Positions 8,784-57,000 of a DNA stretch of 64,000 bases are shown one piece after another. The notes beneath the pieces were generated by a model. That model was not told where the DNA came from, did no database searches, and saw only the letters and a program-made list of their open reading frames with translations. The position numbers and the translations under genes were made by a program. The DNA is from a virus. Location: the IMG/VR virus record IMGVR_UViG_3300048577_000342. One strand, written 5' to 3'. Each line of letters starts with the position of its first letter. Positions within the stretch are counted from its first letter, which is position 1.

Positions 8784-9880
8784 GCTGGGAGGTCGCCGGC
8801 TGGACGATGAAGGCGGTGCGGAGCGCCGGCCCCGCCATGCCCGCCATGCTGCGCTGGCTGCTGATCTGCGTCGCCGACCGCACCAACCGCGACACAGGCT
8901 ACACCTATGTGAGCCCGCGCCGGCTGGCGGAGGACCATGGCTCCTCGGTGGGCTTCGTGAAGGACGGGCTCAGGCGGCTGGAGGCGCTGGGCTTCATCGC
9001 CCGGGTGAAGCGGCTGAAGGCCGACGGCAGCCATGACACCAGCCTGATCGTCGTGCTGGACAGCGAGGAGGCGCAGGCCCGCGCCGCGGCGCTCGGCTGG
9101 ACGAAGCCGGGGCCGGATGGCGATGCCGAGACCGATGGCGCCGGGGCTGGCGAGACACAAGATGTGGGGGGGTGGGTCACCACAGACCCCACCCCCGATG
9201 AAGGGGGGGTGGGTCACCACAGACCCCAGGGTGGGTCACCACAGACCCCACCCTCTATAGATGAACCCGGAATTGAACCTACTTCCCCCCAGCCCCCCTC
9301 GCGTGCGAGGCGGCCGGCGGAGCCATCAGCGAACAGGCCCCCAGGGATTGTGCCCCCTGTTCCGCCAGCGGGGCCGCTGCCCGACGGCTTCGACCCCGAC
9401 CCTTCCGGAGCGAATGCCTTTCTCGCCGCTTGGCGATCGACGATCCGCGCCTCCAGCGCCGATGTGCCGGAGGTGGTGCGCCGGATCTGGCGAGGGCTCT
9501 CGGCGGAAGAGCGACGACGGGCGGCGGGCGACCTCGACGCCTGGCAGCGGCAGATGGCCCGCGAGAAGCGACCCTTCGGCTCGGCGACCCGCTATCTCCG
9601 CGACAAGGCCTGGGAGGTGCTGGACCATGTGCGGGCCGGACGACGGGAGGGCACGGCGCCGCCGACCTTCTTCATCCGGGAGGGTTCGCCCGAGTGGGAG
9701 GCCTGGGTCCGACACGAGACGCGCCATGGCCGGCGTCTGGTGGCGATCCCCTCGCAGCACGAGAAGGGCCGGGGCTGGTGGATGCCGACGCTCTGGCCGC
9801 CGCGGCTGGCGGCCGGGGAGGGCGAGCCCGACGATCTCCAGGCGAGCCAGGACGAGTTTGCGCGGGTCAGCGGGCTATGA
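8780..9880 (+). CDS. Phage replication initiator (N-terminal HTH, internal origin)
   Basis: RWLLICVADRTN...RRLAEDHG HTH; internal iterons; lambda O position. Confidence 0.75.
   Translation: MSWEVAGWTMKAVRSAGPAMPAMLRWLLICVADRTNRDTGYTYVSPRRLAEDHGSSVGFVKDGLRRLEALGFIARVKRLKADGSHDTSLIVVLDSEEAQARAAALGWTKPGPDGDAETDGAGAGETQDVGGWVTTDPTPDEGGVGHHRPQGGSPQTPPSIDEPGIEPTSPQPPSRARRPAEPSANRPPGIVPPVPPAGPLPDGFDPDPSGANAFLAAWRSTIRASSADVPEVVRRIWRGLSAEERRRAAGDLDAWQRQMAREKRPFGSATRYLRDKAWEVLDHVRAGRREGTAPPTFFIREGSPEWEAWVRHETRHGRRLVAIPSQHEKGRGWWMPTLWPPRLAAGEGEPDDLQASQDEFARVSGL
9171..9249 (+). repeat. Origin iterons, 3 x GGTGGGTCACCACAGACCCC
   Basis: Exact 20-bp copies at 9171, 9208 and 9230 inside the initiator gene. 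Confidence 0.85.
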
Positions 9881-10434
9881 TCGAGGGTGGGATGGACGGG
9901 ATGATGGATGGCGTGCCGCTGCTCGACTGGTACGTGGTGGCGACCAAGCCGCAGAGCGAGGCGCTGGCGAGCCGCTCGATCGCGCGGCTCGGCTTCCGGT
10001 GCTATGCGCCGACCATGCCGGTGGAGGTGCGTGGCCGGAAGAGCGGCACGACGGTGGTCCAGAAGCCAACTTTTCCGCACTACCTCTTCGTGCCCTTCGA
10101 TGTGGTGCGCGACCCCTGGCCGCGAATCGCTTCGGCCTTCGGCGTGTCGCGGATTCTGACGACGGGCGCGCCGAGCTGGCAGCCGCTGCGCCTGCCGAGG
10201 GGCTTCGTGGAGCGGCTGATGATGGCGATGCCGGAAGGCGTGGCGCGACAGAATGTCGTGATGTTTCAAGCAGGTGACGAGGTGAGCGTGCAGGGTGGGC
10301 CGCTCGACGGCGTGCTTGGCAGCATCGCGTCACTTGACAGACGGGGCCGTTGCGTCTTGCTGTTGCGCATCCTCGGCGGCGAGATCAAGGCGCAGTTTGA
10401 GGTAGCTCAAATCGCCAGGCGGCGGTCTGCATGA
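9877..10434 (+). CDS. NusG-paralogue antiterminator (lambda Q position)
   Basis: WYVVATKP, PTFPHYLFV NGN domain; FQAGDEVSVQGGPLDG KOW motif. Confidence 0.85.
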   Translation: MIEGGMDGMMDGVPLLDWYVVATKPQSEALASRSIARLGFRCYAPTMPVEVRGRKSGTTVVQKPTFPHYLFVPFDVVRDPWPRIASAFGVSRILTTGAPSWQPLRLPRGFVERLMMAMPEGVARQNVVMFQAGDEVSVQGGPLDGVLGSIASLDRRGRCVLLLRILGGEIKAQFEVAQIARRRSA

Positions 10435-10437
10435 CCG

Positions 10438-10545
10438 GATGACATTGGCGAGGGTGGCGGCGGAACGGAGGGTGTGATTCACCCCGCCGTGCGGATGCCA
10501 TAGACGACCTGAAGAGCCCGGCCAGCGTGCCGGGCTTCGTCGTTT
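10438..10545 (+). terminator. Conserved structured late leader ending in an intrinsic terminator
   Basis: GGGTG-TGATT-CACCC hairpin, then AGCCCGGC-cagcgt-GCCGGGCT...GTCGTTT; conserved at 54171-54281. Confidence 0.65.
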
Positions 10546-10664: not shown

Positions 10665-10820
10665 ATGCGAGAACTGATCGACACGGCCACGGTCGTTGAT
10701 GGAGCTCGCATCGCGACGCTTGCTACCGTGACACCTAGCCTGACTGGCACTGCAGGTGGCGGACTGTTGTTTTGGTTGCTGCACGCACGGCAACGATGCC
10801 AGGGCGAACGGCCAGACTAG
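10665..10820 (+). CDS. Small hypothetical protein (51 aa)
   Basis: GAGGAAGG RBS; short hydrophobic segment GGGLLFWLL. Confidence 0.3.
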   Translation: MRELIDTATVVDGARIATLATVTPSLTGTAGGGLLFWLLHARQRCQGERPD

Positions 10821-10831
10821 GCATAGTGGCG

Positions 10832-12946
10832 ATGGTCAACGGAATTCTGCCGAACAGTAACCCCACGCCGCCCGCAGGGATCAATCCAGTTCGGCGTGTT
10901 ACGGTCAAGCAGGTCGACGAGAGGCTGCGGCGTCTTGAAGATACCGCAGCCGAAGTCATTAAGGATGAAAAGGAAAAGTGCAAGGCGGAACTTGAATCTC
11001 AAATTGAAGCTCTGGCGGAGAAAATAAAGAAATTCCACAAAGTTGCTGTAGTATTTGCTATTTTGCTGTTTTATGTGGCTGCTACAGCAGCAACTACGAC
11101 GCATAGAATGTTATTTCTGTCTTCCCCAATAAAGCTTCCGGTGCTCGGATTCGATTTTCCTCTTCTCGTATTCTATGTGATTGCGCCAATTACTGTACTA
11201 GTGGTCCAGTATACAGTGATGTCGCAGTTGAATGACCTGATGGCGTCCTTTGCACGCTTCCGCGAAGTTCTTACGAGGTTCCTTGGCCAAGCTGGGCGTG
11301 ACCGCGAGGAACTAGTCAGGGAAACTCTGGCGCAGTTGCCGTTCACGATTTTCGCCCGCCTGCATCGTACCAACGGCATGCCGGCGAACGGGCACGTGGT
11401 TGATCGAGTGCTAGGCGTCGCTCTGATCATCGTTGCGCCAACATTGACGATCCTGATCGTGCAAGAGCGCTTCCTGCCCTACCACAGTGAGATCATTTCC
11501 TGGTTCCACCGCATCCTGATCATCTGCGCAGTCATTGTGGCACTAGTCCGTACGGAGTGGCTTCGAAGGCTCTGGCGCCGGCGCTCTGCCTTGGCAATGG
11601 TGGGGCAGGGCTGTGTCGCGACCCTCGTCGCCGCTTCTGTGCTGCTGCCCCTTAGCCTAGGCACTTTTCGCACCGAGGGACTCGGACGGCTTATACATCG
11701 AGGTGATTGGCCGGCCTCTCGATTCTTGCTATATCAGAATGTGCTGGATCTGAACGGCGAGCGGTTCATCGATGAGGCAAATGCGGAACGCAACTACGCT
11801 CAGCGTGTTGCATTCCAATCGGGGGCAAGAATCCCTGTACCTGCGCTGCGCTTTAGTGGGCGCGATTTCAGCGGAGCCGATTTATCCAGCACGGATTTGC
11901 GCTTTGCTAGTTTCATCGATGTAAATTTGGAAGACGCCAAACTGTCCGGCATTCGCCTCGACTACGCACAATTTACAAATGTCTCCATCAAAAGGGCTCA
12001 TCTAACCGCTGCCAATCTCGACGGCGCGATAATGGAGCGTGTCGAATGCCAGGGGGCCGAGTTCTTCCTTGCCAACGCTGTTGGCCTTTTTATTTCGAAA
12101 AGCGAGTGCGCGGCTAGCGAGTGGCTAGGAGTAAACCTCGTAGGAGCCAGGATCTCTGAATCGTCATTTGTCGGTTCCAACTTTTCCGGAGCCGACATGC
12201 GTGCTTCGCGATGGTTTGAAACGGATCTGCGGGGTGTTGCCATGCAGGCAACGCAGCTTCAATTGGCTCATCTGTTCCTGATCAATGCTCAGGCCGCTCT
12301 CTTGGAATCGACCAATCTGACTGGTGCAAGAATGGTTGCTGTCGGCCTCCATCGAACGACTGTCACTGGCCCTCGTCTCACAGCGGCAGCGCTCGCCCGC
12401 CTTCATCTTGAACGGGACCATATATCAGGCGGATCGACTGAAGACGCACTGAATCCGAGGCTTCAACCGATGTCCGACGCGATGCTGTCTGCAGCGATTG
12501 CAAAGGTCCGTGAGAGCAACACAAGAGTGGCTCATCACCACCTGATCGAAGATGCCGTTTCTCGACTAGAGACACTGCGTCCCACCGCGTTGGATCGCGA
12601 TCAAAGGGATAGGGAATTTTGGCAACTGGCCGTTGCCGCAAGCCAAAGCGCTCAACATCACGCTGGACGCTTCGAAGAATGGAAGCGCCTGTTCTGCAGG
12701 ACAGACGGCTGGATACCCGGGTTCATTGCATTGCTTGATCACATGACAGACTTAGTCGGCGCCCCGGCGGGCGATGCCAATGATGCGGCTTCAGTACGAG
12801 GGGCTGCTCGAAGGATGTTCGAAGACCTTCAGAAGGAAAGAGACGGATCGACGTCGGCGTGCTTCGGGGTGCGCAATCTGCCGGAAACCCAGTGGACGGC
12901 TGTCCGCCGCATGATTGAGCGCGATATTTTGGCGCCACAACCCTGA
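10832..12946 (+). CDS. Membrane-anchored pentapeptide-repeat protein (moron)
   Basis: Several N-terminal TM segments; (A/S)(D/N)L/Fxx repeats such as ADLSS, ANLDG, SNFSG; lower GC; start uncertain (10772 or 10832). Confidence 0.8.
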   Translation: MVNGILPNSNPTPPAGINPVRRVTVKQVDERLRRLEDTAAEVIKDEKEKCKAELESQIEALAEKIKKFHKVAVVFAILLFYVAATAATTTHRMLFLSSPIKLPVLGFDFPLLVFYVIAPITVLVVQYTVMSQLNDLMASFARFREVLTRFLGQAGRDREELVRETLAQLPFTIFARLHRTNGMPANGHVVDRVLGVALIIVAPTLTILIVQERFLPYHSEIISWFHRILIICAVIVALVRTEWLRRLWRRRSALAMVGQGCVATLVAASVLLPLSLGTFRTEGLGRLIHRGDWPASRFLLYQNVLDLNGERFIDEANAERNYAQRVAFQSGARIPVPALRFSGRDFSGADLSSTDLRFASFIDVNLEDAKLSGIRLDYAQFTNVSIKRAHLTAANLDGAIMERVECQGAEFFLANAVGLFISKSECAASEWLGVNLVGARISESSFVGSNFSGADMRASRWFETDLRGVAMQATQLQLAHLFLINAQAALLESTNLTGARMVAVGLHRTTVTGPRLTAAALARLHLERDHISGGSTEDALNPRLQPMSDAMLSAAIAKVRESNTRVAHHHLIEDAVSRLETLRPTALDRDQRDREFWQLAVAASQSAQHHAGRFEEWKRLFCRTDGWIPGFIALLDHMTDLVGAPAGDANDAASVRGAARRMFEDLQKERDGSTSACFGVRNLPETQWTAVRRMIERDILAPQP

Positions 12947-12995
12947 GATGACCCGCTTACACCGCTAGCATCTGCAGGGTATGCGACGGACAAAC

Positions 12996-13334
12996 ATGGC
13001 TTATCAACGAACCGGCGATGCCCGGCGACGGGAAGGCTTGCCCTGGCGCACGTGGTATGGGCGGAAGGCGTGGTTGCAGCTTCGCGAGTGGCGGCTCACG
13101 ACCGAGCCGCTTTGCCGATTTTGCAGGAGCATGGGGCGTGTCACCGCGGCAGACACCGTCGATCACATTCGGGCCCACAGGGGTGTCTGGGACCTGTTCA
13201 TAGATCCAGAGAACACCCAAGCCCTGTGCAAGTCCTGTCACGATGGACGCAAGCAGCAGATCGAGCGCATCGGATACGACACTGCAGTTGGCAACGATGG
13301 CTGGCCGATCGATGACCTTCACCCCGGGGGGTAA
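12996..13334 (+). CDS. Packaging HNH endonuclease
   Basis: EPLCRFC, DHIRAH, NTQALCKSCHD; immediately upstream of TerS. Confidence 0.9.
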   Translation: MAYQRTGDARRREGLPWRTWYGRKAWLQLREWRLTTEPLCRFCRSMGRVTAADTVDHIRAHRGVWDLFIDPENTQALCKSCHDGRKQQIERIGYDTAVGNDGWPIDDLHPGG

Positions 13335-13447: not shown

Positions 13448-13918
13448 ATGAAGGGACGCGCACCAAACCCCTCGAATGTCGTGCCGCTCACCGGCGGTTC
13501 CGGCTTCGATGACACCCGCTTCGACGAGGCGGCGCGCGCGAAGGCGGCCGTGCTGAAGGCCTGCACGCTGGCGCCCTCGGTCGAAGCCTCCGCCGTATGG
13601 GACGACCTCGCCTGGCTCATCGCGCATCCACGCTGTGCCCGCCTCAGCCAGCACAACGCCCAGTCCTTCATGCTCGGCTGCGACGCCTTCGCCCGCTACC
13701 GCGCGCTCCGCTCCGAATATTCCGGCGCCGAGTTCTACGAGACCGAGACTCGCAACGGCACCCAGTTCAAGGCCCACCCCGCCGTCGCGCAGATGAACGA
13801 GACCTGGCGCCAGTGGCTGACCGTCGCCCGCGACTTCGGCCTGACGCCTGCCGGCGAGCGATCCCTCGCTAAACCGGACTTCAACCCCGGCGATGACACC
13901 GACCAGCTCTTCACCTGA
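13448..13918 (+). CDS. terS: Terminase small subunit (P27-like)
   Basis: MKGRAPNP start; KAHPAVAQ...ARDFGLTPA motif. Confidence 0.85.
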   Translation: MKGRAPNPSNVVPLTGGSGFDDTRFDEAARAKAAVLKACTLAPSVEASAVWDDLAWLIAHPRCARLSQHNAQSFMLGCDAFARYRALRSEYSGAEFYETETRNGTQFKAHPAVAQMNETWRQWLTVARDFGLTPAGERSLAKPDFNPGDDTDQLFT

Positions 13919-15731
13919 CCTGACGGATGACCGCTGCACCGCCTATGCCCGCAACGTCGTCGCGGGCGATGTGGTGGCCGGTCCCTATGTGCGCCTCGCA
14001 TGCCAGCGTCATCTCGCTGACCTGCGGGACGGCACCGCGCGCGGACTCTTCTACGATCCGGCCGCCGCCGCCCGCGTCATCGCCTATTTCGCGAAGGTGC
14101 TGAAAGTGGCGGCGGACGGCCAGTCCGTGCCCTTCATCCCGGCGGAATGGCAGTGCTTCGTGCTGGGTTCTCTGTTCGGCTGGAAGCGCTCGGCAACAGG
14201 CGCGCGCCGCTTCCGCGAGGCCTATATCGAGACCGGCAAGGGCTCGGGCAAGTCGCCTCTCGCGGCCGGCATCGGCATGTACATGCTGACCTCGGACGGC
14301 GAGTACAGGCCGGAGATCTATGCAGCCGCCTCGAAGCGCGACCAGGCCATGATCCTGTTCCAGGACGCAGTCTCGATGCGGCGTTCCTCGCCCGTCCTGA
14401 TCGGCAAGACCTCGGTGCGCGGCGTCGAGCCGGTCTATCACATCGGCTATCCGAAGCAGGAGGGCTTCTTCCGCCCGATCGCTTCCGAGGACGGCCAGTC
14501 CGGTCCGCGCCCGTCCTGCGCTCTTGTCGATGAGCTGCATGAGCATCGCGACGCGGGCGTCATCACCATGCTGGAAAAGGGTTTCAAGGGCCGCGCCCAG
14601 CCGCTGCTCTTCACCATCACCAATTCCGGCTTCGATCTGTCGTCGCCCTGCGGCCTGCGTCACACCGCGGCGATCGAGATGCTGCGCGGCGAGCTGGCCG
14701 AGCAGGCTAATCCCGACGACCTCTTCGCCTATGTCTGCGCGCTCGACCCCGGCGACGACCCGCTTGAGGATGAGAGCTGCTGGGCCAAGACCAACCCCTC
14801 GCTCGGCGTCACTATCAAGCCGGACTATCTGCGGGCCCAGGTCGCCCAGGCCCGCCGCATCCCGGCCGAGCGCAACATCTGCCTCCGGCTCAATTTCTGC
14901 GTCTGGACCGAGTCGGAAACCTCCTGGCTGTCGCGCGAGGTCGTCGCGCCCTGCATCGCGCATTTCGAACCGGTCGAACTGCACCGATCGAAGTCGCTCT
15001 TCCTGGGTGCCGACCTTTCGGCCGTCAACGATATGACGGCGCTCGTCGGTGTCGTGCCCACCGGCTTCGTGCCGGTCGGCCGCCCCGACGGCACCAAGGA
15101 CATGCTGCCGACCTTCGACGCCTGGGCCGAGGCTTGGACGCCGAGGGATACGCTGCGCGAGCGCGAGGAGCGCGACAAGGCGCCCTATGGCCTGTGGGTG
15201 AAACAGGGCCACCTTGTCGCGCTGCCCGGTTCGCGCATCCGGCTCAGCCATGTCGCGCATCGAATCATGGAGCTGGACGAGGCTTTTACGATCGATGCGC
15301 TGGCCTACGACCGCTACGCCTTCGACAAGCTGAAGGACGATCTCGACGATCTCGGCCTCGACCTGCCGCTCTGGGACCACCCGCAGGCCGGCAAGTCGCG
15401 CAAGAGCCCGCCGGCCGATGTGGTCGAGGCGGCGAAATCAGCCGGCGAGGAAGTGCCGAAGGGGCTGTGGATGCCGGGCTCGCGCCGCATGGTCGAGGAA
15501 CTGCTCATCGAGAAGCGGCTTCGCCTCCGCTTCTCGCCGGTCCTCAATGCGGCCATCGCCGGCGCGCGGCTCGAAAACGACGCCCTCGATAACGGCTTCC
15601 TGATCAAGTCGAAGTCGACGAAGCGCATCGATCCCGCCATCGCGCTCTGCATGGCGGTCGGTGTGGCGACGCAGCGTGTCGTTCCGCCGCGCATTTCCGT
15701 CTACCAATCCCGCGGCGTGCTGGTGCTCTGA
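13893..15731 (+). CDS. terL: Terminase large subunit A
   Basis: Walker A GKGSGKS, Walker B LVDELHE, nuclease GADLSAVNDMT and KRIDP. Confidence 0.92.
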   Translation: MTPTSSSPDLTDDRCTAYARNVVAGDVVAGPYVRLACQRHLADLRDGTARGLFYDPAAAARVIAYFAKVLKVAADGQSVPFIPAEWQCFVLGSLFGWKRSATGARRFREAYIETGKGSGKSPLAAGIGMYMLTSDGEYRPEIYAAASKRDQAMILFQDAVSMRRSSPVLIGKTSVRGVEPVYHIGYPKQEGFFRPIASEDGQSGPRPSCALVDELHEHRDAGVITMLEKGFKGRAQPLLFTITNSGFDLSSPCGLRHTAAIEMLRGELAEQANPDDLFAYVCALDPGDDPLEDESCWAKTNPSLGVTIKPDYLRAQVAQARRIPAERNICLRLNFCVWTESETSWLSREVVAPCIAHFEPVELHRSKSLFLGADLSAVNDMTALVGVVPTGFVPVGRPDGTKDMLPTFDAWAEAWTPRDTLREREERDKAPYGLWVKQGHLVALPGSRIRLSHVAHRIMELDEAFTIDALAYDRYAFDKLKDDLDDLGLDLPLWDHPQAGKSRKSPPADVVEAAKSAGEEVPKGLWMPGSRRMVEELLIEKRLRLRFSPVLNAAIAGARLENDALDNGFLIKSKSTKRIDPAIALCMAVGVATQRVVPPRISVYQSRGVLVL

Positions 15732-36144: not shown

Positions 36145-36215
36145 TGCCCGCAGCCCTCCTTGGGCGTTTCCTCCCGAGACTTGGCCCGCTGCCTCTCGGG
36201 GTGGTGGGCCTTTTT
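36145..36215 (+). ncRNA. MmgR/suhB (alpha-r8)-like small RNA
   Basis: CCCTCCTTGGGCGTTTCCTCCCGAGACTT followed by a GC hairpin and TTTTT, matching my recollection of the family core; 5' end approximate. Confidence 0.65.
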
Positions 36216-36260
36216 CGTCCCGGCGTTGATCCATTGCGGCCGGCCGTGCGTTGATGCTCC

Positions 36261-52518: not shown

Positions 52519-53612
52519 GCTTCAAGGCGGTCGGCTGGGCGATGGAGACCGGGCGGCGCATGGGCCGGGAGCTTCCCGCGCCGCTGCGCTGGCTGCTGGT
52601 CTGCGTCGCCGACCGGCAGAACGAGGACACAGGCTATACTTTCATCCGCCCGCGAAAACTTGCGGAAGACCATGGCAATTCGCTGGACTGGGTGAAGGGG
52701 GCGCTGCGCCAGCTGGAGCAGCTCGGCCTCATCGCCAGGGTGCGCCGGCTGAAGCCGGACGGCAGCCACGACACCTCCCTGCTCATCGTGCTGCACGACG
52801 ACGCGGCCCGCGCAAGGGCTGAGGAACTGGGCTGGACGCCGCCCCTGCCGGGCGCCCCGGACGAGGCGGAGGACGCCGAGGCCGAGACACAAGATGTGGG
52901 GGGGTGGGGTCCAAATCACCCCCACCCTACGAAAGTAGGGGGTAGGGGTGTGGCGGACCCCCAGGGTGGGGGTGAATCCACCCCCACCTCTATAGATGAA
53001 CCTGGAAGTGAACCTCTATCCCCCTTGCCCCCCTCGCGTGCGACGCGGGAGGCGGTGCCATCAGCGGGACAGCCCCTAGCGGTGGTGCCTTCGGGCAAGG
53101 GGCCAGCGAGCTGGCAGCCGGACGGCTGGAGCCCCGACACGGCCGGAGCGGATGCCTTCCTCGCCGGCTGGGAGCCGAAGACGGCGGGCGACCTGCCGGA
53201 GGTCGTGCGGCGGACATGGGCGAAACTTTCGGCCGAGGACCGGCGGCAGGCCGTGGCGCGGCTCGCCGACTGGCGGGCGCAGATGCGGCGGGAGGGCAAG
53301 CGCTTCGGCACGGCCAAGGCCTATCTGCGCGACAAGGCCTGGCAGGCGCTGGACCATGTGCGGGCTGGCCGCCGGGACGGCAGCGCCATGGCGGTGTTCT
53401 GGGTGCGGGAGGGCTCTGCCGAATGGGAGGCCTGGGCCCGGCACGAGGCCCGCGAGGGCCGGCGGATGGTCGGCTTTCCGTCGAAACACGAGGCCGGCGT
53501 CGGCCGCCACATGCCCTCGCTATGGCCGCCGCGGATGGCGGCTGCGGCGGGGAGCGGGCGCGATGTGCTGGCCGAGAGCCATGACGAGTTTGCGCGGGTC
53601 AGCGGGCTATGA
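52515..53612 (+). CDS. Phage replication initiator
   Basis: Homolog of 8780-9880. Confidence 0.75.
   Translation: MSFKAVGWAMETGRRMGRELPAPLRWLLVCVADRQNEDTGYTFIRPRKLAEDHGNSLDWVKGALRQLEQLGLIARVRRLKPDGSHDTSLLIVLHDDAARARAEELGWTPPLPGAPDEAEDAEAETQDVGGWGPNHPHPTKVGGRGVADPQGGGESTPTSIDEPGSEPLSPLPPSRATREAVPSAGQPLAVVPSGKGPASWQPDGWSPDTAGADAFLAGWEPKTAGDLPEVVRRTWAKLSAEDRRQAVARLADWRAQMRREGKRFGTAKAYLRDKAWQALDHVRAGRRDGSAMAVFWVREGSAEWEAWARHEAREGRRMVGFPSKHEAGVGRHMPSLWPPRMAAAAGSGRDVLAESHDEFARVSGL
52883..52998. repeat. Origin region of phage B (GGGGT-N6/7-ACCCC palindromes)
   Basis: ggggtccaaatcacccc, ggggtgtggcggacccc, ggggtgaatccacccc; same position in the gene as the A iterons. Confidence 0.6.
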
Positions 53613-54175
53613 GCGAGGGCGGGATGGACGAGAGTTGGGCGCCGGCGCGGTGGGTGAAGGGCTGCGACTGGAACTGGTATGTGGTCGCGACCATGCCGGG
53701 TTCGGAGGATCTCGCCTGCCGGACGATCGGCCGGCTCGGCATCGAAACCTATGTGCCGAAGGTGCTGGTGCAGGCGAAACACGGGCGGGTGATCCGCAAG
53801 GTGGAGCGGCCGGCGTTCCGCAGCTACGTCTTCGCGACCTTCTCGCTGGACGATCCTCGGTGGCCCGACATCGCCCGCTGCTTCGGCGTCTCGCGGATCC
53901 TGACGCTGGCCGATTCGGGGCGATTCGGTATTCCCGCGCCGCTGCCTGCCGGCTTGGTCGAGGCGATGAAAGCCGCCGGGACGATCGTCGTGCAGAAGCC
54001 GAAAGGCCCGCGATTCCAGAAGGGTGAGGAGGTTCGCGTGGTGGACGGCCCCTTCGCCGGCTTCCTGGCCAAGATCGCCAAACTTGACAGCCGCGGCCGT
54101 TGTGTCTTGCTTCTGCGCATCTTCGGCCGGGAGACGAGCGCCCGGCTGGAGCTAGCCCAAATCGCCAAGCGATGA
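53609..54175 (+). CDS. NusG-paralogue antiterminator
   Basis: WYVVATMP, PAFRSYVF, FQKGEEVRVVDGPFAG. Confidence 0.85.
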   Translation: MSEGGMDESWAPARWVKGCDWNWYVVATMPGSEDLACRTIGRLGIETYVPKVLVQAKHGRVIRKVERPAFRSYVFATFSLDDPRWPDIARCFGVSRILTLADSGRFGIPAPLPAGLVEAMKAAGTIVVQKPKGPRFQKGEEVRVVDGPFAGFLAKIAKLDSRGRCVLLLRIFGRETSARLELAQIAKR

Positions 54176-54281
54176 CTATGGCGAGGGTGGTGGACGAGCG
54201 GCAGGTGAGCGATTCACCCGACCGTGCGGGAGCATGAGATGGATACGACAAGCCCGGCCAGCGCGCCGGGCTTCGTCGTTT
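54171..54281 (+). terminator. Conserved structured late leader/terminator
   Basis: Homolog of 10438-10545. Confidence 0.65.
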
Positions 54282-54404
54282 CAGAGGCATAGGGCAGCGC
54301 CCTGCCTCGCCCGAACGGCACGGTGACGCCGCGCCCGGGATCGTTCGGGGGAGCGAGACAGGGCGGGGCGGGGCGCCCCTGCCGTCCCCCTGACCCCGGG
54401 TGCC

Positions 54405-54791
54405 ATGGCCCGCCTTCCGCGTCTCTCGCCGGCGATCGGTACATTGAAGCCAGCCGTGCCTGTGTCGGCCCATGACGGGCCGGAGCGGGACAGGTGGCGC
54501 TCCCAGCATCAGCCGTGGCGCGCCTGGTACAAGACGGCCCGTTGGCAGCGCATCAGGTGGGAGGTGCTGACCCGCGATCTGTTCACCTGCCAGTGCGGGT
54601 GCGGGACGATCGTCGCCGACACCTCGCAGCTCGTCTGCGATCACATCGACAGGCACAACGGCGATCCAGTGAAGTTCTGGAACGGTCCGTTCCAGACCCT
54701 GTGGAAGCCCTGCCACGACCGCAAGAAGCAGCGCGAAGAGCAGCAGACCCAGGGGGGTGGGTCAAAAGTCTGGCGGGGTGATCGCCTCTAG
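54405..54791 (+). CDS. Packaging HNH endonuclease
   Basis: WYKTARW, CDHIDRH, FQTLWKPCHD. Confidence 0.85.
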   Translation: MARLPRLSPAIGTLKPAVPVSAHDGPERDRWRSQHQPWRAWYKTARWQRIRWEVLTRDLFTCQCGCGTIVADTSQLVCDHIDRHNGDPVKFWNGPFQTLWKPCHDRKKQREEQQTQGGGSKVWRGDRL

Positions 54792-54826: not shown

Positions 54827-55303
54827 GTGAGCGACGATTTTTCCGCGCCAGATGCCGACAACAAGCCGCAGGAGGTCGATCGCGACCTCTTCGGAGCGCC
54901 TGTCGGCCAGATTCGCGAGCGCTGGGGTCGGCCTTCGTTCAAAAAAACGAAGGAAAATCAAGAACTTGTTGCGCTTCTGCGGGCGGACGGCTGGACGCAG
55001 GATCGCATCGCCGCCCATCTCGGCTGCGATACCAAGACGCTCGCAAAGTATTTTTCCCGGGAGCTCCAGTACGGCTCCGATCTCATCCGGGCGATGGCCC
55101 TCCAGGTCACGCTCCAGCGCATGCGCCAGGGCAACTCGGTCGCCACCGGCCGCCTCCTCGATCTCACTCTCGAGGCCGGCGGCGCCGCCGTCCCGCTCGC
55201 GCCGAAAGCCGACAAGCCCGCGCCCCTCGGCAAGAAGGAGGCAGCCAACGCCGACGCGCAGACCGCCCACAAGGGCACCGGATGGGGTGACCTTCTCCAG
55301 TGA
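54827..55303 (+). CDS. Probable terminase small subunit (HTH type)
   Basis: IAAHLGCDTKTLAKYF; between HNH and TerL; unlike the A TerS. Confidence 0.65.
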   Translation: MSDDFSAPDADNKPQEVDRDLFGAPVGQIRERWGRPSFKKTKENQELVALLRADGWTQDRIAAHLGCDTKTLAKYFSRELQYGSDLIRAMALQVTLQRMRQGNSVATGRLLDLTLEAGGAAVPLAPKADKPAPLGKKEAANADAQTAHKGTGWGDLLQ

Positions 55304-57000
55304 CCGCCTGGTCCTTCGCCTGTCCCGACTGGGTCGACCGCCTCAAGGCTGGCCGCTCGCTCATCCCGGATCTCCCCCTCGACGAGGCGGAGGCGGCCCG
55401 GGCGGTCGGCATCTTCGACAAGCTCTGCCTGCCGGATGTGCCGGGCACGCCGACCCTCAGGGAGGCCGCCGGAGACTGGGCCCGCGACATCGTCCGCGCC
55501 GCGTTCGGTTCCCTCGACCGGGAGACCATGCACCGCCACGTCGCCGAGATATTCGCCCTGGTGCCGAAGAAGAACTCGAAGACGACCTACATCGGCGGCG
55601 CCGTCGGCGTCGTCGCCATGCTCGCCAACAAGCGCCCGCGCGCCGAGATGCTCTTCATCGGGCCGACGCAGGAGATTGCCGACCTCGCCTTCCAGCAGGC
55701 ATCCGGCATGATCGCCTCGGATCCTGAAGGCTACTTGCAGAAGCGCTTCCACGTCGTCGAGCACCAGAAGACGATCGTCGACCGGCTCACCAAGGCCAAG
55801 CTGAAGATCAAGACCTTCGACCTGAAGGTCCTCACCGGCGCCAAGCCTGTCGTCGTCATCGTCGACGAGCTGCACATCATGTCCCAGCTCTCCTACGCCT
55901 CCCGCGTCCTCGGCCAGCTGCGCGGCGGCCTCATCCCGAACCCCGAGAGCCTCCTCATCATGATCACCACCCAGTCGGACGATGTCCCGGCCGGCGTTTT
56001 CAAGACCGAACTCGACTATGCCCGCGGCGTCCGCGACGGCCGCATTACCGAGGACGTCCGCATGCTGCCGATCCTCTACGAGTTCCCCGAGGACATGCAG
56101 GCCTCCGGCGCCTGGCGTGATCCCTCCGTCTGGCCCATGGTCCTGCCCAATCTCGGCCGCTCCATCACGATCGAGCGCCTCCTCCCCGAATATCGCGGTG
56201 CTCGCGACAAGGGGCTGGAAGAGGAGCGCCGGTGGGCCTCGCAGCATCTCAACGTCGAGATCGGCATGGGTCTGCACTCCGCCCGGTGGCGCGGCGCCGA
56301 CCACTGGCTCGACGCCGCCGACGAGCAACTCGCGGATCTCGACGCCTTCCTCGCGCGCTGCGACGTCGTCACCGCCGGCGTCGACGGTGGCGGCCTCGAC
56401 GACATGCTCGCCCTCGGCCTCATCGGCCGATGCCGTAGCACGCGCGACTGGCTCTCGTGGAACCGCGCCTGGCTGCAGCGCTCGGTGCTGGCCCTGCGCA
56501 AGGACATCGCCGAGCGTCTCGAAGGCTTCGGCCGCGATGGAGATCTCGTCCTTTGCGACGACGCCACCGAGGACATCATGGGCCTCGTCGACATCGTCGA
56601 GCGCGTCCGCGACGCGGGCCTGCTGCCGAACGAGAACGGCGTCGGCCTCGACCCCTACGGCGTCGCCGCCCTGGTCGACGAGTTCGCCGCGCGCGGCATC
56701 ACCGTACCGACCCTTGTCTCGGTTGGGCAGGGCACGCGGCTGTCGCCGGCGGTCTGGGGTCTCGAGCGCAAGCTCAACGACGGCACTTTCTGGCATGGCG
56801 GCCGTCCGCTCATGACCTGGTGCGTCGGCAACGCGAAGGCGGAACAGCGGGGCAATGCGGTGCTGATCACAAAGCAGACGGCCGGCAAGGCGAAGATCGA
56901 CCCGCTGGTGGCAACGTTCAACGCCGCCATGCTGATGGCCAAGAACCCCGAAGCCATCGGCCGCAGCGTCTATGAGACGCGCGGCGTGCTGGTGCTCTGA
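55300..57000 (+). CDS. terL: Terminase large subunit B
   Basis: PKKNSKT Walker A variant, VIVDELH, GVDGGGLDD, KIDPLVA. Confidence 0.9.
   Translation: MTAWSFACPDWVDRLKAGRSLIPDLPLDEAEAARAVGIFDKLCLPDVPGTPTLREAAGDWARDIVRAAFGSLDRETMHRHVAEIFALVPKKNSKTTYIGGAVGVVAMLANKRPRAEMLFIGPTQEIADLAFQQASGMIASDPEGYLQKRFHVVEHQKTIVDRLTKAKLKIKTFDLKVLTGAKPVVVIVDELHIMSQLSYASRVLGQLRGGLIPNPESLLIMITTQSDDVPAGVFKTELDYARGVRDGRITEDVRMLPILYEFPEDMQASGAWRDPSVWPMVLPNLGRSITIERLLPEYRGARDKGLEEERRWASQHLNVEIGMGLHSARWRGADHWLDAADEQLADLDAFLARCDVVTAGVDGGGLDDMLALGLIGRCRSTRDWLSWNRAWLQRSVLALRKDIAERLEGFGRDGDLVLCDDATEDIMGLVDIVERVRDAGLLPNENGVGLDPYGVAALVDEFAARGITVPTLVSVGQGTRLSPAVWGLERKLNDGTFWHGGRPLMTWCVGNAKAEQRGNAVLITKQTAGKAKIDPLVATFNAAMLMAKNPEAIGRSVYETRGVLVL

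Follow-up and report, generated by a model that had tools for sequence, protein, structure and literature searches.

Among NusG paralogues recruited by a site in the leader of their target operon, RfaH of E. coli and Salmonella, which acts at the ops element GGCGGTAGCGTG of JUMPStart leaders, is the closest described counterpart of the system reported here, as a protein family and by solved structure, and recruitment is known in detail for E. coli RfaH only (PMC7593976). The non-template strand of E. coli ops folds into a hairpin in which C3 pairs with G8 and G4-A7 form the loop; RfaH takes up the flipped T6 in a pocket of H20, R23, Q24 and R73, and RNA polymerase pauses at C9 and U11; the substitution A7T abolishes recruitment and T6A cuts it about 3-fold (PMC5995543). 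LoaP of Bacillus velezensis/amyloliquefaciens is likewise a specialised NusG paralogue, encoded beside the antibiotic operons that it targets, with a hairpin in the leader, and it reads through intrinsic terminators (PMC7819879). In phage lambda, the gene for Q closes the early-right operon and immediately precedes the late genes; at the pR'-qut-tR' region, Q loads on a polymerase that has paused soon after starting the late transcript and takes it past the terminator. To our knowledge, the timing of late genes in temperate phages of Alphaproteobacteria is largely unknown. Here we analyse a 64,000-nt stretch of viral DNA (IMG/VR record IMGVR_UViG_3300048577_000342; hereafter, the window; GC content 68%) that contains two related prophages, each with an RfaH-like NusG paralogue upstream of its late genes and, behind the paralogue, a leader of about 110 nt ending in a very stable hairpin terminator. 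Judged from its sequence, this locus is best described as an RfaH/ops-type module that moved into the late-switch position of temperate Hyphomicrobiales phages. We hold it to be reasonably probable that the module works as a late antitermination switch with retuned specificity, the terminator being its gate.

In both prophages a gene with replication-initiator-like PHROG matches lies directly 5' of the paralogue, and HNH, TerS (small terminase) and TerL (large terminase) lie downstream. The NGN+KOW open reading frames (ORFs) between the replication gene and the HNH-terminase genes bear out the proposal, made in an earlier sequence-only reading of the window, that a NusG paralogue stands directly upstream of the late genes in both phages. 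In prophage 1 the stop codon of the replication gene overlaps the start of the paralogue (ATGA, 9877-9880). The two paralogues are 48% identical in alignment; both match the Pfam NusG NGN domain, and the prophage 2 protein passes the Pfam KOW cut-off. For both, the best NCBIfam family is RfaH (TIGR01955), with 89.1 bits for prophage 1 and 81.1 bits for prophage 2, under the equivalog cut-off of 144.5 bits; chromosomal relatives, at 101-114 bits, likewise fall under it. UpxY, NusG and LoaP are the next-best curated families, the LoaP scores (NF033641; 36.2 and 46.4 bits) lying under the cut-off of 125. The best PDB match of the prophage 1 paralogue is E. coli RfaH (E 6.5e-12), and phrog_6386, labelled 'transcription antiterminator', matches both window proteins (E 2e-16 and 1e-23). 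No match to a Q family was found for the window paralogues in Pfam, NCBIfam or PHROGs, and their fold is NusG-like. An AlphaFold2 (AF2) model of the prophage 1 paralogue, built from 127 sequences, has a predicted local distance difference test (pLDDT) score of 87.6; its NGN domain superposes on that of RfaH at 1.9-2.5 Å, and the top Foldseek matches are NusG and RfaH. Among the RfaH contact residues K10, H20, R23, Q24, T72 and R73, only K10 and R23 are retained in prophage 1. The phage paralogue is not RfaH in the strict sense: its score does not reach the cut-off, it has lost contact residues to substitution and its predicted fold is not the autoinhibited one.

The paralogues have no close homologue among 50,697 records of cultured phages; the best matches of that search are bacterial RfaH proteins at 30% identity. 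A library of 1.8 billion representatives (50% identity) yielded 3 matches at E <1e-30 and 755 at E <1e-10, suggesting that the phage paralogues are a narrow clade within a large RfaH-like family. About 20 phage-type relatives, at 42-100% identity, turned up in protein searches of viral contigs, metagenomes and genomes, and more distant relatives (26-43% identity) are present in 74 of 401 sampled genomes of the same order. The phylogenetic tree unites the phage-type proteins in a single clade (support 100/99), placed among chromosomal RfaH-like paralogues of Hyphomicrobiales. In all phage-type loci of sufficient length, the replication gene is followed by the paralogue, a leader of 50-390 nt, an HNH-like gene, TerS and TerL, and this order is kept even where TerL is only about 25% identical to that of the window.

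The leader hairpin begins 32 nt after the stop codon in prophage 1 and 24 nt after it in prophage 2. In 18 distinct phage leaders, a hairpin with a GGGTG/CACCC core is followed by an invariant GTGCGG-NN-GC; 92% of the stem cells pair, and five of the eight pairs have changed on both sides. In ops numbering, G2, C3, G4, G5, G8 and C9 are invariant in these leaders and only positions 6-7 vary, being AT in class A (prophage 1 and 11 others), GA in class B (prophage 2 and 6 others) and AG in L017, a third phage type (class C); chromosomal sites have TA. Compared with the RfaH ops GGCGGTAGnnTG, the words TGCGGATGCCAT of prophage 1 and TGCGGGAGCATG of prophage 2 retain positions 2-5 and 8-9, the replacements falling on T6 and A7. 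Since E. coli ops is known to form the C3:G8/G4-A7 hairpin, the phage sites appear to keep the architecture of ops and to vary in its loop, which is the part read by RfaH. In the tree, class B forms a nested clade (support 100/100) and class A is paraphyletic, so AT is probably the older phage state.

All motifs named in the sequence-only reading are present, at or within one base of the positions given there, and its claim that the leader blocks persist while spacers and neighbouring genes differ extends to all 18 leaders, which come from phage contigs, metagenomes and genomes with differing late modules. The comparison with Rfam that it proposed (4227 covariance models, JUMPstart included) found no relevant family for the leader up to E 10, and eight related loci had no match up to E 1; the leader is thus uncatalogued there. 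In the proposed search with a covariance model of the leaders, the whole-leader model (R3), run against 151 genomes, truly matched only the known prophage of G001; outside it, all inspected matches, considered as further leaders, turned out to be a generic terminator at gene ends with no paralogue nearby.

A closer link to ops comes from the bacterial chromosome. Twenty-seven distinct chromosomal or metagenomic relatives carry, on the same strand and 57-313 nt past their stop codon, a hairpin followed by TGCGGTAGC(A/G)TGG, where TGCGGTAGC is the E. coli ops GGCGGTAGCGTG with minor changes. The hairpin is mostly GGGTGA...TCACCC, with GGGCA...TGCCC in one group. A covariance model of these sites recovers them with E values from 1e-5 to 1e-17; 92% of the stem is paired, with covariation above that of all 500 shuffles, and Rfam, JUMPstart included, matches none of the sites examined. 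When a model built from the chromosomal hairpin-ops sites only (R2) was applied to the prophage 2 leader, it matched end to end (54198-54242, 8.0 bits, E 0.007 in a 501-nt search). The phage leader therefore appears to be a variant of the chromosomal hairpin-ops site, and the suggestion that an ops-like cis element recruits the paralogue gains from the near-canonical ops that follows a hairpin downstream of the chromosomal relatives. As far as sequence analysis goes, the inference of ops-like recruitment and read-through into the late genes is supported. R2 did not find a canonical hairpin-ops site in G001 and G288, the hosts of two related prophages, an empty result that is uninformative here. 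Genes that by eye resemble those for sugar-nucleotide enzymes follow several of the chromosomal sites, and we found no paper that describes an alphaproteobacterial chromosomal cassette of an RfaH-like gene and hairpin-ops. Upstream of the hairpin-ops sites of the chromosomal relatives L021, L039 and L068-L073 there are promoter-like hexamers, TTGAC(G)/TTGCGT ... TATAG, between which lies an inverted repeat, GTTCAG-N3-4-CTGAAC, a candidate operator for the RfaH-dependent operon.

Residues at ops-contact positions of the protein vary along with the site. In an alignment of phage and chromosomal proteins to Salmonella RfaH, from which residues are numbered, position 24 of the T6 pocket is Gln in RfaH and in 21/21 chromosomal relatives and Leu in 19/19 phage proteins. 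At position 72, the chromosomal proteins and class C have Thr, class A has Ala and class B has Cys; at position 10, classes A and C share Lys, and class B has Met or Leu. Over positions 10/20/23/24/72/73, class A reads K, S/T, R (Ala in L075 and L081), L, A, F/W, and class B reads M/L, T, R, L, C, F/H/Y. Only five NGN positions fully separate phage from chromosomal proteins, and three of them (20, 24 and 70) are among the 11 ops-contact positions (hypergeometric p ~0.01, calculated by hand). The phage factors probably read their own sites and not host ops sites, because the phage sites differ only at loop positions 6-7 and the pocket residues differ too. A further step, which we put forward tentatively and consider rather doubtful, is that factors and sites form natural orthogonal pairs, in which the loop change from TA to AT, GA or AG goes with Q24L, Ala/Cys/Thr at position 72 and Lys/Met at position 10, with the consequence that, within one cell, each of the three (host factor, prophage 1 and prophage 2) would turn on no operon but its own. 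If true, RfaH-type recruitment would have its first specificity code, and processive antiterminators that do not cross-react would be at hand as a set. The recombinant proteins L079 and L084 were considered as a natural domain swap. The NGN clearly belongs to class B, but the C-terminal domain (CTD) is about equally near to both classes, which makes too weak a case.

The terminator that closes the leader is exceptionally stable, at -26.5 kcal/mol in prophage 1 (z -5.3), and none of 200 shuffles was as stable for either prophage. A terminator scan lists the prophage 1 hairpin and not that of prophage 2, which has a short T tract. The inner 8-bp stem is identical in 18/18 leaders, while the loop varies. 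The same stem and loop occur just after the stop codons of unrelated genes in other Hyphomicrobiales genomes, and the terminator is accordingly of a generic host type rather than phage-specific. This use at gene ends argues that the terminator hairpin does terminate, and it explains the invariant sequence. In L087-L097, from other Hyphomicrobiales genomes, GCCCGGCC-ATCG(T/C)-GCCGGGC recurs across many genomes after the stop codons of unrelated genes, almost letter for letter, and has the look of a stereotyped terminator or of a repeat that has spread in the order.

Based on these comparisons and on what is known of RfaH, the switch may be pictured as follows. In each prophage the paralogue would be the last gene of the early (replication) operon, with its own loading site and terminator next to it. 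A polymerase coming from the paralogue gene, or from a promoter in its 3' end, would transcribe the hairpin and then the 12-nt ops-like word, and by analogy with RfaH/ops might pause about 9-11 nt into the word, the RNA hairpin in the exit channel stabilising the pause. The non-template strand would fold into the small C3:G8 hairpin and expose loop bases 4-7, to which, together with polymerase, the phage NGN domain would bind, staying on the elongation complex thereafter. The modified polymerase could then pass the strong terminator 10-25 nt further on, as well as later Rho-dependent or pause sites, and transcribe the HNH, terminase, structural and lysis genes. With too little paralogue, transcription would stop at the terminator, and late expression would wait until the factor has built up. 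Pausing, binding, read-through and timing are the steps that we infer here.

Several observations weigh against such a switch. The predicted CTD of the AF2 model is a β-barrel KOW domain (strands 135-181, pLDDT ~90) and not the autoinhibited α-hairpin of RfaH, so that the RfaH-style need for ops to open the protein may not apply; AF2 gives a single state, and fold switching is compatible with the predicted barrel. RfaH is reported to be weak against intrinsic terminators, which LoaP reads through (PMC7819879). Only three T follow the terminator stem. The leader hairpins of the window, taken alone, are no stabler than shuffles (z -0.6 and -1.0). In prophage 1 the R2 match is confined to the hairpin (E 0.065), and L017 gave no significant match; the link of these two to the chromosomal sites rests on their alignment with class B. 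Differences between classes A and B are not enriched at ops contacts (4/11 vs 24/98, p 0.26), and the co-variation of protein and site could be plain shared ancestry. Finally, a sigma-70 promoter scan found no promoter at either locus, and no convincing -10 element accompanies the CTTGAC embedded in the paralogue gene.

Some of these points would suit recruitment through RNA, as with LoaP, in which the paralogue recognises the transcribed hairpin and its 3' flank and then reads through the terminator. This alternative, which survives best, we regard as unlikely. It gains from a hairpin that is conserved and covaries in both the phage and the chromosomal sets, from a stem that runs into the first bases of the ops-like word in the folds of L017 and L075, from an obstacle of the type that LoaP passes and RfaH passes inefficiently, and from the lack of an autoinhibited CTD in the AF2 model. 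Family scores point the other way, RfaH standing at 89 and 81 bits against 36 and 46 for LoaP; so do the invariant C3, G4, G5 and G8, which define the DNA hairpin of E. coli ops (PMC5995543), and the T6-pocket residue, which changes along with position 6. It is more likely that the core is read as non-template DNA, accompanied by an RNA pause hairpin, than that the leader acts purely as RNA.

Distinctly less credible is a general anti-Rho factor that replaces host NusG on phage DNA and needs no loading site, the leader then being an operon boundary (the terminator) with structures for RNA stability or processing. An ordinary β-barrel KOW would allow sequence-independent binding as in NusG, the generic host type of the terminator fits an operon boundary, and the blocks at 10403-10417 and 10438-10457 have no assigned role. 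However, the hairpin and GTGCGG-NN-GC stay by the gene in 18 leaders while spacers, flanks and late modules change, the leaders of L075 and L081 retain just the hairpin, the word and the terminator, and the same composite site follows the chromosomal relatives. A short terminated leader transcript with a function of its own, a small RNA (sRNA) like lambda 6S or a cis-acting put-like RNA, on which the paralogue does not act, is very improbable: CTTGAC about 100 nt upstream and the strong terminator could define a transcript of ~170 nt that no Rfam family describes, but there is no -10 element, little structure besides the hairpin and terminator is conserved, and the linkage to the paralogue and the ops-like core would be left unexplained.

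The proposed RfaH/ops-type switch can now be set beside the known systems. With E. coli and Salmonella RfaH/ops it has in common a word that keeps the core including C3:G8, a leader before a long operon and, presumably, processive antitermination as the outcome. It differs in the replacement of H20, Q24, T72 and R73, in loop bases 6-7 (AT/GA/AG vs TA), in a factor gene placed directly upstream of its own site, in having a late operon behind an intrinsic terminator as its target, in a CTD predicted as β-barrel rather than α-hairpin, in a score below the equivalog cut-off and in the absence of a match to Rfam JUMPstart. The alphaproteobacterial cassette is nearer: it has the paralogue, a GGGTG(A)/(T)CACCC hairpin and TGCGG..GC a few bases on, and the phage proteins branch within its proteins. 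There, however, the word is TGCGGTAGC and the T6 pocket has Gln, whereas the phages have changed positions 6-7 and Leu, have HNH and terminase genes following, and add a strong terminator after the word. Lambda Q resembles the phage factor in position and logic, with no relation in sequence or fold to an NGN+KOW protein; Q loads through a DNA site at a sigma-dependent promoter-proximal pause, whereas the phage paralogue would load on elongating polymerase at an ops-like pause. LoaP shares the specialised paralogue beside its target and the leader hairpin, whereas the phage proteins score far under its cut-off and the phage site retains the DNA core of ops.

Phage-borne genes of this kind have been noticed before. 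rfaH-like genes on prophages are mentioned, and Alphaproteobacteria account for 18% of rfaH genes (PMC7593976); control of late and lysis genes was guessed for a NusG-like protein of Helicobacter prophages (PMC11321410). These papers and PHROG 6386 mention or label such genes, without a cis element, specificity or mechanism, and we found no paper with a cis element for a phage NusG paralogue in a search that most subscription journals lay outside. The earlier description of the system as undescribed therefore stands for the cis element, which is not in the sources found, and not for the genes, given the prophage rfaH-like and NusG-like genes in these papers and the antiterminator label of PHROG 6386. 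If the switch exists as proposed, a group of rhizobial-type temperate phages uses a captured RfaH/ops module in the place of lambda Q, and the ops hairpin can be retuned at two loop bases, which would open a direct way to study the reading of non-template DNA by NGN domains. The two prophages, as co-residents, would then show how such switches avoid cross-talk, and the factor, the 40-nt site and the terminator would be compact parts for orthogonal control of long operons in high-GC bacteria.

Table 1. Coordinates of the paralogue genes, leader elements and late genes in the window
Feature	Prophage	Position	Strand	Remarks
RfaH-like NusG paralogue	1	9877-10434	+	185 aa; NGN+KOW; Pfam NusG E 9e-15
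RfaH-like NusG paralogue	2	53609-54175	+	188 aa; Pfam NusG E 5e-13, and KOW
CTTGAC	1	10333-10338	+	in Leu-Asp codons of paralogue 3' end; candidate -35
CTTGAC	2	54083-54088	+	embedded in paralogue
CTTGACAG	1 and 2	10333-10340 and 54083-54090	+	motif check
TAGC(T/C)CAAATCGCCA	1 and 2	10403-10417 and 54153-54167	+	inside last paralogue codons
GATGAC..TGGCGAGGGTGG	1	10438-10457	+	conserved block
Leader hairpin	1	10466-10489	+	CGG-A-GGGTG, loop TGATT, CACCC-CG-CCG; adjoins ops-like word
Leader hairpin	2	54199-54224	+	CGG-CA-GGTGA, loop GCGAT, TCACC-CGA-CCG
CCGTGCGG	1 and 2	10487-10494 and 54222-54229	+	motif check
Ops-like 12-mer TGCGGATGCCAT	1	10490-10501	+	class A; loop positions 6-7 AT
Ops-like 12-mer TGCGGGAGCATG	2	54225-54236	+	class B; only position 6 differs from chromosomal TGCGGTAGCATG
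Intrinsic terminator	1	10503-10545	+	outer GACGA/TCGTC, inner AGCCCGGC/GCCGGGCT, then GTTT
Intrinsic terminator	2	54245-54281	+	-25.3 kcal/mol, z -5.5
HNH	1	12981-13334	+	Pfam HNH
TerS	1	13448-13918	+	Pfam Terminase_4 among first-late-gene matches
TerL	1	13893-15731	+	Pfam TerL_ATPase, TerL_nuclease
HNH	2	54405-54791	+	PHROG HNH matches for 54405-54788
Small terminase ORF	2	~54827-55303	+	position and ORF list only, by analogy with prophage 1
Large terminase ORF	2	~55300-57000	+	position and ORF list only, by analogy with prophage 1

The 3' end of the paralogue gene carries conserved words of its own (Table 1). A conserved Leu-Asp pair is written CTT-GAC in 20/20 phage-type genes, and CTT is used in none of the 11 chromosomal relatives that have Leu-Asp at that place. 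CTTGAC coincides with the -35 consensus reported for Sinorhizobium promoters, and a late promoter at the embedded word is a candidate; polymerase may just as well arrive from the early operon by way of the paralogue gene. A -10 element was also sought by conservation, and the hexamers 16-18 nt past CTTGAC proved no more conserved than the codons impose. Codon shares, taken from 13 large window ORFs regarded as phage genes, are 6.4% CTT and 1.4% CTA for Leu, 1.1% GTA for Val, 6% CAA for Gln and 0.6% AGA for Arg, and they confirm the earlier remark that TAGC(T/C)CAAATCGCCA is written in rare codons. This TAGCTCAAATCGCCA block (10403-10417), TAGC(T/C)C(A/G)AATCGC, retains the rare codons (GTA or CTA, GCT, CAA), survives a Gln-to-Arg change (CAA to CGA) in L006, L052, L053 and L082, and is absent from L075, L081 and L017. 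The last 100 nt of the paralogue genes (10340-10400 and 54090-54150, + strand) are rich in rare codons (TTG twice, CGT, AGA, GTA/CTA, GCT and CAA), and GGCCGTTG and TTGCGCATC in the 3' end are nearly invariant, which points to a constraint at the nucleotide level beyond CTTGAC.

Past the stop codon, GATGAC..TGGCGAGGGTGG occurs in any reading frame in most class A and B leaders, is absent from L075 and L081 and is reduced to GAGGGT in L017; GGCGAGGGTGG (10447-10457) is conserved in most class A and B loci. Because both the 10403-10417 and the GGCGAGGGTGG blocks are lacking in L075 and L081, where hairpin, word and terminator make up the whole leader, these blocks are considered accessory. A leader peptide was rejected: a small ATG-started ORF covers GGCGAGGGTGG in both prophages, but the block lies in the other two frames in L079/L084 and L082. 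Base pairing between TCGCCA of the gene and TGGCGA of the leader was likewise dropped, the variants in L001, L082, L083, L079 and L084 not being compensatory. We judge a cos site at the leader unlikely, since HNH separates it from TerS.

The pattern CACC-N3-7-GTGCGGNNGC, written post hoc, occurs three times in the window against 0.25 expected, and two of the three are the leaders. The third match, CACCTGCCAGTGCGGGTGC (CACC-N-GTGCGGNNGC; 54584-54602, + strand), lies inside the HNH gene where a Cys-rich motif is encoded, and recurs in the homologous HNH of L017 at 2366-2384; it is probably a coding coincidence, and could be a second loading site. Just past the prophage 2 terminator (54288-54320, + strand), a block CATAGGGCAGCGCCCTGCC...CCGAACGGCACGG contains a small GGCAG/CTGCC hairpin; the block is found at the same place in L001, L006, L007, L054, L055, L077 and L083 and not in prophage 1. 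In prophage 1 only, a pentapeptide-repeat gene (10772-12946, + strand, 724 aa) separates the leader terminator from HNH. It has a GC content of 53-59% (window, 68%) and, near the N-terminus, hydrophobic stretches that are possibly membrane-spanning; insertion of an accessory (moron) gene at the late-switch junction is the probable explanation. The sole Rfam match at the gathering threshold in the window, the suhB/mmgR sRNA (RF00519, 47.5 bits, 36146-36224, + strand), sits at the far end of the prophage 1 late region.

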